Position numbers and translations under genes: made by a program
DNA from: a virus
Taxonomy: Duplodnaviria; Heunggongvirae; Uroviricota; Caudoviricetes
Virus record (IMG/VR): IMGVR_UViG_2802429219_000013
Length of the DNA stretch: 6,888 bases
Direction: 5' to 3' (one strand)
Shown here: positions 865 through 6,888 of the stretch, in pieces
How positions within the stretch are numbered: position 1 is the stretch's first letter
Layout of the letters: each line of letters opens with the position of its first letter
The notes under the pieces: generated by a model
What the model saw: only the letters and a program-made list of their open reading frames with translations
The model's database searches: none
What the model was told of the DNA's origin: nothing

Positions 865-939
865 TGCGGGTTATAATCGCACTTTTGCGGGTTATAACTG
901 CCGTTTTGCGGGTTATTTTGGGTATTTTGCGGGTTACGA
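865..939 (+). repeat. Four direct iterons (TGCGGGTTAyna) at exact 21-bp spacing
   Basis: TGCGGGTTATAA at 865-876 and 886-897, TGCGGGTTATTT at 907-918, TGCGGGTTACGA at 928-939; each preceded by a short T run. The 21-bp period is two helical turns, so all copies lie on the same face of the DNA. Confidence 0.75.
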
Positions 940-978
940 TTTTCCTGTCATTCCTTTAATAATCATATGGATACTGAT

Positions 979-987
979 TTATCCACA
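979..987 (+). promoter_or_regulatory. Consensus DnaA box (TTATCCACA)
   Basis: Exact 9/9 match to the E. coli DnaA box consensus, located inside the AT-rich spacer between the direct and inverted iterons. Confidence 0.5.
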
Positions 988-990
988 GAA

Positions 991-1009
991 ATAACCCGCA
1001 TAACCCGCA
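991..1009 (-). repeat. Two inverted copies of the iteron core (ATAACCCGCA = reverse complement of TGCGGGTTAT)
   Basis: ATAACCCGCA at 991-1000 and again at 1000-1009 (9-bp offset, sharing one base), opposite in orientation to the four direct iterons. Confidence 0.7.
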
Positions 1010-1037: not shown

Positions 1038-3161
1038 TTAATCTTCTTCGCTTTCAGGCTGGAACATCAGCACGTAAAAAACATGCTGCTTCCCCCCAAT
1101 CCTGCCGAGCGCCTTTTTCTTGTAACGGCGATCGTTACCCGCTTCCAGCATTCCGGCAGCACTCAACGCGCGGGCAAAGTGAGACGGATTAAATCCCTGT
1201 GCTATCTCACCCTCAAATACATGCGGGAACGTGTAAAAACGGAACTCGTCATCTTCGTTTCTGATACTCCCCTTTCTGTATCCGGCAAGCTCTTTAATCG
1301 GTAAATCACGCTCGTCGGTGTTGGGCCACGGAAGGTATCTGCTGAATCCAAACGACGCTAAAAAAGCCTCTGCCTGTTCAACCATCTGTTTAAACTCCCT
1401 GTTACCCGTGCCGAATTCCTTCACCCAGGCATTAAAATTATGCTGAATGGCATCGCGGCACGCCTGAACATCCCAACCAGTAATATGGACGGAAAGCACC
1501 AGCGCCGACTCCAGCATGGCGAATCGTTCCCCCACACGGTGAACCTGTTCGCCGTAGCTCTCCGGTATCAGGTTGCGCCACCGTTCACGGCATGCCCTTA
1601 CCGTGTCCTTTGCCTCCTGCTGGTGGTCTGCCAGCCATTTAACCCACTCACGCCCAGCCGCCCCGTGATTTTCTGTCCAGGCATCTTTTAACGCGTCTGC
1701 GTGCGCCTTTCCGGTGCTGTATTCGTGAAATTGCGTGGCTTTTTCCATCGGAACGTTAAGCAGGCGGACAAGCTGCCCCGCTTTGACTTTTATCCCCTCC
1801 GTTTTGAGGAATGTTTCAACGTCCATTTCTCCGGTACTGATTGCCACCGTTCGCCAGTGTTTGATCTCCCGGTTGCCGCCGTCCTTCGCTCCCTGTAATT
1901 TCCCGGAACCGTTAAACAGCGTATAAGCCGATGTGGACACCTCCCGCGCGTTTCCGGCCTGACCTATTTCATCCAGGGGTAATAGCCCGTCATTGTGCGC
2001 CTCTGCCTCGTTGGCGATACCTAACGCCGTGCCGTACCAGGTCAGCCGTTGTGCGTCCGGCTCTCCCCATAAACTGGATGCGATGTTCTGCGTTGTGGTC
2101 TTACCTGCCGATGACTGTTCGAAAAGATGTACCCCGAAGCCGTCAGCACCCACCAGCCCGATTAATGGTGCGGATAACGATACCGCCACACCCAGCATCA
2201 TGGACGGATTACCACCAGCCAGTCGCGCCACGGTATCGCGCCAGCCATCCGCCGTTCCTGCCACGGAATAGCCATTAACGGCAGCCGTTTTTCCGGTAAA
2301 CAGGATCGGTTTTTCAGACTCACCAATGACTGAACCGTCCGGCATGATGTACGCACCAAAATGCCAGCCCGTTGTTGTGCTTAACTGCCATTCCTCATGG
2401 TTTCCGCTTAACTGCATCCAGTCAGCCAGGATAGCCCTGTATTTGCCGTTGGTTGTCACATTCAGTCCGTGGTCTTTCAGCAGCCGCCAGCCGTCACGGT
2501 CGCCAATGCCACCGCACGGAACCGCCATTGTGATGACTTCGTGGTTTGCAGGTTTCTTCCAGCGCATCACGCGGTAATGCTCTTTGCCGATTGTCCCCGT
2601 TCCCAGTAGTTCAAGCGGGGAGCATAACCACGTCTCAGGCCGGATAATTTCGCCTGACTGCTTGTCAACTTTGGGCGTTACCCAGAAAACACCATCGGCG
2701 CGACTTTCAACGCGGGGCTTTAATTCATCATCGCCCTGGCTTTCTGTGATTTTTTTCTTTAAGGGCAACACCAGACTTTCCCCGCGCTCGTATTCGTCTT
2801 TCAGTCGGGCAAGCTGTGGTGTCCAGTCCTCCAGTAAATCGCCGTTCTCGTCACAAAAACAGGCTTCCTTAACACCAGCCGCTGCCAGCAGGGTTTCAAT
2901 CTGTAGCGCCAGTTTGTCATCCAGTTTTCCGGCACGTCTGACGATGGCGCGTGACCGACCATCATCCACAATACGCAGGTTTTCCAGATTACCCAGGTCA
3001 CGCCGTCCGAGATAAACAGGTGGTATTTTGTCGCCGCGCTTTCTGGCTTCTCCGCCCTGCATGTAATGCTCTGCGTGGCTGTATGCGTCATCCCCCGCAA
3101 AAATCACTGCATCCTCGCCTTTATCTTTCGGTAACAGTTTTACGTTCGGTGCCAGTTTCAT
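1038..3161 (-). CDS. Primase/helicase-like replication initiation protein (P4 alpha-like / DUF927-type, assignment from memory) with P-loop-like SAGKTT motif
   Basis: 707-aa ORF, by far the longest in the window. Start ATG at 3161 overlaps the upstream ORF's stop (ATGA) and is preceded by GGGGAAAGG. Contains a P-loop-like motif FEQSSAGKTTTQ near aa 350. Position between the regulatory module and an iteron origin matches replication proteins of int-alpA-pri type satellites. Family call not verified by search. Confidence 0.9.
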   Translation of the reverse strand: MKLAPNVKLLPKDKGEDAVIFAGDDAYSHAEHYMQGGEARKRGDKIPPVYLGRRDLGNLENLRIVDDGRSRAIVRRAGKLDDKLALQIETLLAAAGVKEACFCDENGDLLEDWTPQLARLKDEYERGESLVLPLKKKITESQGDDELKPRVESRADGVFWVTPKVDKQSGEIIRPETWLCSPLELLGTGTIGKEHYRVMRWKKPANHEVITMAVPCGGIGDRDGWRLLKDHGLNVTTNGKYRAILADWMQLSGNHEEWQLSTTTGWHFGAYIMPDGSVIGESEKPILFTGKTAAVNGYSVAGTADGWRDTVARLAGGNPSMMLGVAVSLSAPLIGLVGADGFGVHLFEQSSAGKTTTQNIASSLWGEPDAQRLTWYGTALGIANEAEAHNDGLLPLDEIGQAGNAREVSTSAYTLFNGSGKLQGAKDGGNREIKHWRTVAISTGEMDVETFLKTEGIKVKAGQLVRLLNVPMEKATQFHEYSTGKAHADALKDAWTENHGAAGREWVKWLADHQQEAKDTVRACRERWRNLIPESYGEQVHRVGERFAMLESALVLSVHITGWDVQACRDAIQHNFNAWVKEFGTGNREFKQMVEQAEAFLASFGFSRYLPWPNTDERDLPIKELAGYRKGSIRNEDDEFRFYTFPHVFEGEIAQGFNPSHFARALSAAGMLEAGNDRRYKKKALGRIGGKQHVFYVLMFQPESEED

Positions 3162-3472
3162 TTTGCCTTTCCCCGTTCACGAATAATTTCACGTACTGCC
3201 TTAATGCGTTCCATACCTGTAACGCGCATGATTCTGTCGATGTCGCTTAAGTCCGCTGGTGGTGCTTTGCTTACCAGGGTGAATTCCCTTTCAAAGCGCA
3301 TAAGTGACGACACGCAGGGATGCGCATAACCTTCGCGGATATAGGTCACGCGAAAATCATCGACGGTTTTAATCGTTATCGTGCTGCCGTATTTATCCCG
3401 GAAAATATCGCCGGGGCGGATTTCAGGCCGAGCGGGGCCGCTGGCAGTAAAGCCAGAAATTTTCTGTTTCAT
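3158..3472 (-). CDS. Hypothetical protein (104 aa), translationally coupled to the primase gene
   Basis: ORF MKQKISGF...RERGKAK; its TGA stop overlaps the primase ATG (ATGA, 3158-3161). Starts 5 nt after the stop of the upstream ORF. No family recognised. Confidence 0.7.
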   Translation of the reverse strand: MKQKISGFTASGPARPEIRPGDIFRDKYGSTITIKTVDDFRVTYIREGYAHPCVSSLMRFEREFTLVSKAPPADLSDIDRIMRVTGMERIKAVREIIRERGKAK

Positions 3473-3705: not shown

Positions 3706-3934
3706 GGTGCGCCCCCTGAATATCTGCGGTAAGAATTTTGCCTGCCTCATTCAGTGCCATATCAGCGGTAAGCTGTGCGTATGCCAGTGAATGCGGGATT
3801 ATCGCCCCTGTATATTCCGGCTCTCTGGTAATGTGTTTTTCTGCGGTTGCTGCTGTGCATGAAATATCAATCAGCGCGTGCATTAGCGTTTTGATGGCTT
3901 CGGCGGCTGCGTCCGGACGGGTGTTATTGCACAT
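3698..3934 (-). CDS. Hypothetical small protein (78 aa)
   Basis: ATG at 3934 preceded by TATTCAGGGGG with 6 nt spacing; 11-nt overlap with the upstream ORF. C-terminus ...ADIQGAHHA is encoded by the reiterated junction element. Confidence 0.55.
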   Translation of the reverse strand: MCNNTRPDAAAEAIKTLMHALIDISCTAATAEKHITREPEYTGAIIPHSLAYAQLTADMALNEAGKILTADIQGAHHA

Positions 3935-4136
3935 GTCTCACCCCCTGAATATTCGCGTTAATCATTCCGGCACGCTCTGCGAGTTCCTGTAATGATTCCC
4001 TTGTTGCGACAATTGCTTCATCTGGCAGGTGGTAATTACACACCACGCGACCTTTATCCACATTGACCAGTAGCTGCCCGGTGAATTTCTCACGAAACTG
4101 AACGCGGTTAAGGTCGGTAAGTGACAGGTTAATCAT
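3924..4136 (-). CDS. Hypothetical small protein (70 aa)
   Basis: ATG at 4136 preceded by TCAGGGGG with 6 nt spacing; C-terminus ...ANIQGVRHVQ is encoded by the junction element. No family recognised. Confidence 0.55.
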   Translation of the reverse strand: MINLSLTDLNRVQFREKFTGQLLVNVDKGRVVCNYHLPDEAIVATRESLQELAERAGMINANIQGVRHVQ

Positions 4137-5658: not shown

Positions 5659-6888
5659 TTATATTTCTCTGGCTATTGGCAGTGTGGTTACGTTTTCGTG
5701 AGCACCTGCCAGTATCTCTAATCGCTCTGTCCATATGTCCAACGCACTACGTTTCGCATCGAGATAACGGGAGTGGTTATAGACTCGTTGCATCCCTGGC
5801 ATCTGGTGAGCGGTGAGTTGTTCGACAATATGCGGATCCACGCCTAAATCGTTCAGCATCGTGGTAAACGTGCGCCGTATATCGTGTAGTGACCAGTGCG
5901 GATGGTTTAATTTTTTGTGTGTGAATCTGCCGTATTGCGACACGCTGGCTTCCTGTTTCAGCTCCCCGAGTAATAGCCCTGTGTGTCGGTTCTGCTCCAC
6001 CAGCTGCGTGACGAACGGTAAAATGCTTTCCGGTATTGGCCTGAATATGGCGACCTTCGTTTTGCTGTGTTCTTTCGGTACCGTCCAGAGCATTTCCTTA
6101 AAATCCCACTCCTTGATCTCCGACAGCCTCAGCTCTCCGGTTCGGCAGCCGAACACAATCAGGAGGCGGATTAGTGCGCTGTAGTAGGGTGGGAATATTT
6201 TTTTATCCAGCGCCTGTAATAATTCGCCCAGTTCTTTGTTACTAAGCACGCGTTCGCTTATGCCGGGCTTTTTGCCAACGTCCACTACGTTGAGATCATC
6301 CAGAACGTTACTGACTGCGTAGCGACGTTTACGGCAGAACTTAAGCGCCTGTTTACACGCCTGCATCATGTGACCAGACGTTACAGGGGATTTTTTGCGT
6401 ATCCGGTCAAAACAGGCCAGCCAGTGACGTAACTCGCATTTATCCAGTGGCATGTTACCGATGTGCTGTATGACGTGATTATTAAGGCGGCTTTTCAGGG
6501 AGATGTAATCGACGCGGTTTTCCTTTACGTGCATTTCCAGCCAGTAGCTGATCGCATCGCCCACCGTTACCGGCTTTAGTGCTTCCTGTATGGAGTAATT
6601 AAGCTCATGGCGTGGATTTTTTCCCTCTGCCAGCCATGCGCGACACTGTGCTGCTTTTTCCCTAGCTGCTTTCAGGCTCAGATCTGGATAATTTCCCAGT
6701 TTCAGGCGTTCCGGTGATACCTGGCGTCCTGTTCCTGCCCTGTAGGTGAAATACCAGGTTAATAGGCCGCTGGTGGAGTGTCTGATACTCAGATTTCCAC
6801 CGTCATTAAGAAAGGTGGTTTTTTGGGCTGGTGTGCCGTTGATTTTTCTTAGCTGCGTGTCGCTCAGTTTGTTAAGTGCCCTGCTCAT
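5659..6888 (-). CDS. int: Tyrosine site-specific integrase (P4-type)
   Basis: 409-aa ORF with the tyrosine recombinase catalytic signature in the C-terminal half: R in VFGCRTGELRLSE, HxxR in LHDIRRTF, and the downstream tyrosine region QRVYNHSRYLDAKRS. ATG is at the last bases of the window (6886-6888), so upstream sequence and the att/tRNA side are not visible. Confidence 0.95.
   Translation of the reverse strand: MSRALNKLSDTQLRKINGTPAQKTTFLNDGGNLSIRHSTSGLLTWYFTYRAGTGRQVSPERLKLGNYPDLSLKAAREKAAQCRAWLAEGKNPRHELNYSIQEALKPVTVGDAISYWLEMHVKENRVDYISLKSRLNNHVIQHIGNMPLDKCELRHWLACFDRIRKKSPVTSGHMMQACKQALKFCRKRRYAVSNVLDDLNVVDVGKKPGISERVLSNKELGELLQALDKKIFPPYYSALIRLLIVFGCRTGELRLSEIKEWDFKEMLWTVPKEHSKTKVAIFRPIPESILPFVTQLVEQNRHTGLLLGELKQEASVSQYGRFTHKKLNHPHWSLHDIRRTFTTMLNDLGVDPHIVEQLTAHQMPGMQRVYNHSRYLDAKRSALDIWTERLEILAGAHENVTTLPIAREI

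Follow-up and report, generated by a model that had tools for sequence, protein, structure and literature searches.

What is the function of the short repeats that lie between a replication gene, rep, and a gene for a single-stranded DNA-binding protein, ssb, in the 6,888-nt stretch of viral DNA that we analysed, referred to here as the window? A first reading, made from the sequence alone, took these repeats for an iteron origin bound by the element's own initiator, and our results argue for the same answer: the layout is conserved, the repeats covary with the C-terminus of Rep, and published PICI and SaPI origins are laid out in this way. From such comparisons, and by analogy with those systems, we think it very probable that 865–1009 is the Rep-bound replication origin of a PICI-type satellite of Escherichia coli, or at any rate the rep-proximal half of that origin.

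The array is built from a 9-mer, TGCGGGTTA. Four exact direct copies lie on the + strand at 865–873, 886–894, 907–915 and 928–936 (span 865–936), found alike by reading the sequence, by a repeat finder and by pattern search; two exact inverted copies, found by reading and by pattern search, abut one another on the – strand at 992–1000 and 1001–1009. From start to start, the direct copies are spaced 21, 21 and 21 bp, and the inverted pair 9 bp (repeat finder, TRF); TRF reports a period of 21 at 865–916 and a period of 9 at 991–1009. The coordinates that the sequence-only reading had given, for four exact repeats every 21 bp and two tandem reverse-complement copies, are confirmed by these independent repeat and pattern searches. 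Because the period is 21 bp, the four direct iterons all lie on one face of the helix, and all but one are flanked on the 5′ side by a T-rich sequence (TTTTGCGGGTTAT). With up to one mismatch allowed, TGCGGGTTA matches the window nine times, against 1.84 ± 1.33 times in 200 dinucleotide shuffles, where the highest count is 6. Since only ~0.05 exact copies are expected per whole window, the presence of six within 145 bp is not a matter of chance.

The direct (+) and inverted (–) sets converge on a 54-bp spacer, and the array as a whole fills the entire rep–ssb intergenic space, ending 64 bp upstream of the ssb start (801). At its other end it does lie, as first claimed, directly 3′ of the replication gene: 28 bp beyond the stop codon (1038–1040) of ORF 1038–3161. 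The linker between that stop codon and the iterons, 1010–1037, carries a semi-conserved motif, TTCACCCTACACGCG. A post-stop motif—CCTACACGCG/CGCGTGTAGG, TCACACA or ACACGTGAGG, then TAAAAA—can be read in the window at 1010–1037 and in relatives; it is present just after the rep stop in L006, L051, L007, L008 and L053, despite their changed iterons.

The AT-rich region that had been described between the two repeat sets proves to be real, and distinctive. The spacer (937–990, 54 bp) is 68.5% AT, compared with 49.7% for the window, and by nearest-neighbour energy the least stable 30-mer of all 6859 window positions, 954–983, falls inside it. It is the presumed site of melting. A known RNA was considered as the source of the repeats and rejected, Rfam returning nothing for 700–1150 at E ≤ 1. 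Searched by blastn against 50,697 phage records, 802–1037 finds no match, and so the origin is not a phage origin.

Two features of PICIs can be seen in the window itself, an integrase gene and unidirectional ORFs; the size of the island, ~10–15 kb, is judged from relatives. The large ORFs all lie on the – strand, and so do several small ones. They include a large ORF for a tyrosine integrase (int, 5659–6888), a DUF4222 gene (3158–3472), a gene for a 306-aa protein with a repressor-like C-terminus, rep and, directly after the origin, ssb (379–801; Pfam SSB, E 3.9e-16). The closest overall relative is a ~14-kb island inserted in yifB of E. coli A36 (locus L055), which contains an alpA-like HTH gene, icd, DUF4222, rep, ssb, ProQ/FinO, perC and terS. 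The rep–ori–ssb module is also held by a capsid-forming island, L001, together with that island's own capsid, portal, protease, HNH, terS and terL genes. From this island gene content, and from the relatives L055 and L001, the element is therefore taken to be a PICI, a phage-inducible chromosomal island. Relatives, EcCICFT073 included, share the gene order DUF4222–rep–ori–ssb, and rep–ori–ssb finds megablast matches in 882 of 5426 complete E. coli genomes, with at least 80% of the query covered in 237 of them.

Two further observations concern the surroundings of these islands. In E. coli O177:H21, a resident prophage has its large-terminase gene interrupted by the capsid-forming island L001, two fragments of terL (L001 5190–5933 and 21367–22395) flanking the island. 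In the window, positions 1–236 match none of the closest relatives—L022, L055, L014 and L017 align from 237, and L001 and L028 from 379—and the module downstream of ssb is for this reason a different one in the window's island.

The product of rep (1038–3161, – strand) is a predicted self-loading helicase-initiator of 707 aa. DUF927 (E 1.3e-46) is the only Pfam domain found in it, and there is no Rep_3 domain. In a phmmer search of the PDB, Rep aligns with 8tch_A (E 7.9e-14 over residues 212–597) and 5dgk_A (E 1.2e-3), and with the full-length AF2 model of Rep (mean pLDDT 61.7) Foldseek finds 5dgk at 5.7e-8 and 8tch at 2e-6, and no others below 1e-3. The structure 5dgk is the SCCmec Cch helicase; 8tch is given in the Foldseek description line as ‘SaPIBov1 initiation of replication protein with helicase activity’, and a search of the literature turned up no paper on this second entry. 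By sequence and by modelled fold, Rep is a homologue of two self-loading helicases, SaPIbov1 Rep and SCCmec Cch.

The label of primase, which the sequence-only reading had given to this gene, is not supported. Residues 1–165 of Rep match no Pfam family even at E ≤ 10; relatives of 909–920 aa have Zn_Ribbon_Prim and Toprim_3 domains where this N-terminus sits; and phrog_1139, ‘DNA primase’, aligns to Rep only from profile position 235 on. No primase can be identified anywhere in the window.

When aligned with 120 database homologues, Rep resolves into three modules that assort independently: N (residues 1–140), core (150–600) and C (610–707). The N-terminal domain (window 2742–3161; MKLAPNVK...) is modelled with confidence as an alpha/beta domain (pLDDT ~85–92) that matches no Pfam family and assorts without regard to the helicase core. 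It sits where the longer relatives and P4 alpha have a primase domain, and it is common, over ~140 residues, to the Pri-Rep of EcCICFT073 (L056 5242–5660), the core of which is P4-alpha-like. It may be a primase substitute, or an adaptor for a host factor.

The C-terminal module (residues 610–707; window 1041–1334, – strand) is the candidate reader of the iterons, and is probably of the Cch-type HTH, or winged-helix-like, kind. Pfam HTH_56, ‘Cch helix turn helix’, matches the window's C module at E 1.4e-3, below the cut-off (19.1 versus 26.2 bits). The same family, and no other, is matched by 14 of 22 homologous C-termini, at best with E 2.8e-5. AF2 models the isolated C-terminal 122 residues at a pLDDT of 43, and in the full-length model the C domain and a segment of the ATPase stay below 50. 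Profile searches of the PDB with the C-terminal alignment gave nothing significant, and by hhalign that alignment shows no similarity to the C-terminus of P4 alpha (probability 0.1).

Relatives of the locus were gathered from E. coli genomes, from a GTDB scan (8 loci), from an exact-pattern scan of viral contigs, and from contigs picked by Rep variant. Across 13 related loci the layout stays constant while the 9-mer itself changes. After the rep stop come ~20–30 bp, then two or three abutting repeats with a 9-bp period, then an AT-rich gap of ~45–60 bp, and then three or four opposite repeats spaced by 11 or 21 bp. The AT-rich gap is found at the same position in every related origin inspected, and the 9-bp tandem pair or triple just past the rep stop is found in every relative. 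The twelve relatives with this layout come from Escherichia, Salmonella, Klebsiella, Citrobacter-like, Pluralibacter, Shimwellia and Winslowiella hosts. In the 27 distinct origins that have TGCGGGTTA, the iteron cores are invariant and the spacers between iterons are variable.

Written in rep-sense orientation, the 9-mers are as follows. The window, L001, L002 and L055 have TGCGGGTTA; L007 (Winslowiella) and L053 (Salmonella) have TGTGGGTTA/CGTGGGTTA; L008 (Pluralibacter) has TACGGGTTA; L006 (E. albertii) and L051 (E. coli) have CTTGTCCCA/GTTGTCCCA; L003 has GTTGCCTCA; L010 (Shimwellia) has GTTGTCTCA; and L011 (K. michiganensis) and L054 have GTTGGTTCA. The iterons of EcCICFT073 (L056) are CTGTCTACC, and those of the sister islands L004 and L005, the rep of which is P4-alpha-like, are TGTTCACC.

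What changes together with the iteron is the C-terminus of Rep. Over 12 loci, the Hamming distance between iterons follows the distance between C modules (610–707) with a Spearman r of 0.73 (Mantel p = 1e-4), whereas against core or N-module distance r is –0.11. Individual cases make the point more directly. The Rep of E. albertii (L006) is 95% identical to the window's Rep in the core and 34% in the C module, and its iteron differs. The Rep of L007 is 72% identical in the core and 68% in the C module, and its iteron is different by one base. The Rep variant P0004 (L051) is 98% identical in the N module, 95% in the core and 34% in the C module, and on these figures an iteron other than TGCGGGTTA was predicted before the DNA was read; the origin carries GTTGTCCCA. 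We infer from this covariation that the last ~100 residues of Rep read the iteron sequence.

Origins of this general kind have been described before. In Gram-negative PICIs, the DNA 3′ of rep contains two iteron sets with an AT-rich stretch between them (Fillol-Salom et al. 2018, PMC6092414). The rep–ori segment of one of these, EcCICFT073, maintains a temperature-sensitive plasmid; with a rep mutant plasmid there were no colonies, and with the ori deleted there were significantly fewer (PMC6092414). TGCGGGTTA is not in the supplements of that paper, where the iteron sequences of E. coli PICIs appear in Fig. 2a. The Reps of SaPIs are self-loading helicases that read iterons through a C-terminal winged helix (Qiao et al., PMC9371898). 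Their iterons lie immediately downstream of rep, at least two on each side of an AT-rich middle and in opposite directions, and the self-loading family of helicases to which Rep belongs needs no loader (PMC9371898). EcCIEDL933 replicates after induction of its helper, and the cf-PICI paper describes no origin for it (10.1101/2022.09.08.507074). The O157:H7 island L002, probably the same element as EcCIEDL933, has the same iterons as the window and a Rep that is 83% identical.

The window's array agrees with PICI and SaPI Rep–ori modules at every point that can be judged at the level of sequence: homology of Rep, position 3′ of rep, and opposed iterons around an AT-rich region. It resembles EcCICFT073 in host species, in gene order (int ... 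DUF4222–rep–ori–ssb–perC), in the homology of the first ~140 residues of Rep, and in having 9-bp abutting iterons after the rep stop, followed by an AT-rich gap and opposite iterons. It differs in that the core and C-terminus of the EcCICFT073 Rep are P4-alpha-like (41% identity to alpha 324–756), not DUF927, and in that EcCICFT073 has its own iteron, CTGTCTACC, a contiguous second module, and no DnaA box. The EcCICFT073 origin has been tested on a plasmid, whereas the window's is known from its sequence alone.

With SaPIbov1 and SaPI1 the likeness extends to the core of Rep, in sequence and fold, to an ori right downstream of rep with opposed iterons around an AT-rich centre, and presumably to specificity that resides in the C-terminal domain of Rep. 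The SaPI iterons, however, are penta- or hexanucleotides, whereas the window has 9-mers spaced strictly at 21 bp and 9 bp; a primase, separate or fused, belongs to the SaPIs but cannot be detected in the window; the window's host is Gram-negative; and in close relatives of the window a second module stands apart from the first.

Binding of the DNA, melting, loading of the helicase and the exact start site can be envisaged for the window from what is known of SaPI Reps and from the pri–rep–ori plasmid test of EcCICFT073. After induction, the island would make its Rep (1038–3161), a DUF927 hexameric helicase that, like the SaPI Reps and Cch, would load itself. The HTH or winged-helix-like module formed by its C-terminal ~100 residues would recognize the 9-bp TGCGGGTTA sites, four of them in two-helical-turn phase on the ssb side and two, abutting, on the rep side, facing one another across the 54-bp AT-rich spacer. 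Rep assembled on both sides would then melt the spacer and load itself as the replicative helicase, and SSB, from the adjoining gene, would coat the unwound strands.

Is this the whole origin? In EDL933-type islands, and in all the other genera examined, a mirror-image second module comes directly after the proximal array, and its last elements, just ahead of the next gene, are three abutting repeats and a TATATATA-like motif. In window-type islands, a homologous second module lies 7.7–8.5 kb off, at the far end of the island and beside the att junction; this distal module is seen in L055, L001, L028, L040, L036, L024, L021, L029 and L027. The second module is made up of TATATATATA, three abutting copies of the TGCGGGTTA type, ~77 bp of AT-rich DNA, and three opposite copies (L055 3301–3453; L001 6209–6362; L028 526–680; L040 366–520; compare L002 3600–3770), and from island to island second modules have a mean column identity of 83%. 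Several contigs of 9.7–15 kb with the same iterons have the proximal array only. Judged by these comparisons, the origin may be bipartite, with the rep-proximal array as just one of its halves, or as the auxiliary one.

A more specific version of this idea is that the window-type origin is one half of a split, P4-like bipartite origin, the second module of which has been carried ~8 kb to the att end, and that host DnaA is recruited as well. We regard this combination as unlikely; if true, recruitment of DnaA through a perfect box would make this the first PICI origin with input from the host initiator. Rep bound at both modules may loop or pair the sites, as a control on firing or on copy number. 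Once the circle is excised, the distal module would face attP and int, and it might then drive transcription across attP towards int.

The precedent for a second site is P4. In the annotated P4 record, the element directly 3′ of alpha is crr, and ori lies 4.5 kb away. Were the window's array a crr-like, cis-acting auxiliary site of the same sort, replication would start at the other cluster, instead, and the proximal one would be an enhancer, or a partner in looping or handcuffing; the homologous second module 7.7–8.5 kb away in close relatives fits such an arrangement. We consider it quite improbable, nevertheless. It is the rep-proximal array that is the functional ori in PICIs and SaPIs; the EcCICFT073 plasmid was maintained by rep plus the presumed ori cloned alongside it; several of the 9.7–15 kb contigs do with the proximal array alone; and that array has an AT-rich, least-stable spacer of its own. 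A crr-like role is kept alive mainly because the window stops short of its island's far end, the distal module being known from relatives.

The comparison with P4 is instructive in other respects. Both elements are satellites of E. coli, and in both a multifunctional initiator-helicase uses, or for the window would use, its C-terminus to bind short iterons. In P4, crr lies directly 3′ of the replicase gene and includes a 9-bp-spaced tandem pair and inverted copies; a second cluster is kilobases away, as it is in the window's relatives. The replicases themselves are unlike, alpha being of the alpha/D5 type and the window's of the DUF927 type, with C-terminal domains that have no detectable similarity. 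The iterons are unlike, too (TGTTCACC, which is P4's own type-1 repeat in the annotated record, versus TGCGGGTTA), and replication of P4 does not start at the cluster next to the gene. The window has neither the alpha-type primase-helicase nor the TGTTCACC by which P4's ori and crr are recognized. As for the sister islands, the rep–ssb gap contains at least 10 copies of TGTTCACC in both L004 (4165–4451) and L005 (4328–4615). Their rep genes are annotated ‘DNA primase family protein’, and cross-reaction with P4 alpha would be expected.

The perfect DnaA box that the sequence-only reading reported is indeed present, the consensus TTATCCACA being matched exactly at 979–987 on the + strand, 4 bp from the inverted iteron pair. 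In plasmids such as pSC101, RK2, P1 and F, DnaA at TTATCCACA and the initiator together recruit DnaB–DnaC, and the window's origin could in principle be a DnaA-dependent one of that style. Given how often perfect boxes occur over 550 kb of related loci, 54 bp would contain one with a probability of only ~0.2–0.3%, and the box is perfect in all 8 window-type origins. That constancy carries little weight, however, because window-type origins are more than 94% identical overall. There is, too, only one box. A sister variant has the same iterons, but its final pair of direct copies is spaced by 11 bp, and at the position of the box it reads TTATACACA (most sequences), TTATGCACA, TTATATACA or TTACACACA. 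Although the relaxed consensus TTWTNCACA fits most of these origins, it is broken in 6 of 19 distinct sequences (TTATATACA, TTACACACA), and the constrained positions of the box mutate as freely as nearby bases of the spacer. Of the origins with other iterons, 11 of 12 lack TTWTNCACA, the tested EcCICFT073 origin among them, and the sole exception is a T-rich stretch 3 nt past a stop codon.

The initiator, too, speaks against dependence on DnaA: Rep looks to be a self-loading helicase of the SaPI/Cch type, not a RepA/Rep_3 initiator that needs DnaB. The iteron plasmids (pSC101, RK2, F, P1, R6K) do resemble the window in having direct initiator sites ~21–22 bp apart, an AT-rich neighbour and a DnaA box. 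Their initiators are Rep_3/RepA winged-helix dimers, whereas the window's is a helicase; the window's iterons are split into two convergent sets, and its DnaA box is not conserved in the family. The features that mark DnaA-dependent iteron plasmids are not those of the window, and we hold such an origin to be very unlikely. The proposal that host DnaA is recruited has therefore fared poorly, perfect boxes being confined to the window-type variant and the relaxed consensus missing from 11 of the 12 other-iteron origins. Most likely, to go by these sequences, the box is dispensable, or the accessory of one lineage, and is not conserved in this class of origin. A second exact TTATCCACA occurs in the window at 4054–4062, within a 70-aa ORF (3924–4136, – strand), and two perfect boxes per 6.9 kb exceed the ~0.06 per kb of related loci.

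That the array is a transcriptional control region instead—an operator or promoter for the ssb, perC and packaging genes, or an autoregulatory or termination site of rep—is scarcely credible. In favour of it, the array fills the whole rep–ssb gap, the outer triple of relatives' second modules abuts a TATATATA/TTTGTTTATATA motif ~20 bp before the RBS of the next gene, and a scan of 700–1150 turns up a single weak sigma-70-like match (951→924, – strand), but promoter matches in that scan are no commoner than in shuffles (1 versus 0.6), no intrinsic terminator-like site is found over the same interval, the window lacks the TATATATA motif between 801 and 865, the iterons covary with the C-terminus of a helicase-initiator and not with any regulator, and convergent iterons around a melting-prone spacer are the signature of an origin. 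The array may have a secondary regulatory role as well.

As a Rep-bound origin, the array has a different helicase core and a different iteron from those tested in E. coli; the type of origin is already known, and for that reason the result is confirmatory, not surprising. What it adds is the split second module, and clean evidence, from natural domain swaps, for the module that sets specificity. The origin, and the likely determinant of its specificity, are now located for a very common satellite replicon of E. coli, one that serves classical and capsid-forming PICIs alike. The same helicase core is found with different C-termini and different iterons, and this bears on incompatibility and cross-talk between satellites that reside together in one cell. 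For tests of how self-loading helicase-initiators recognize their origins, these natural module swaps offer a design that is already at hand.
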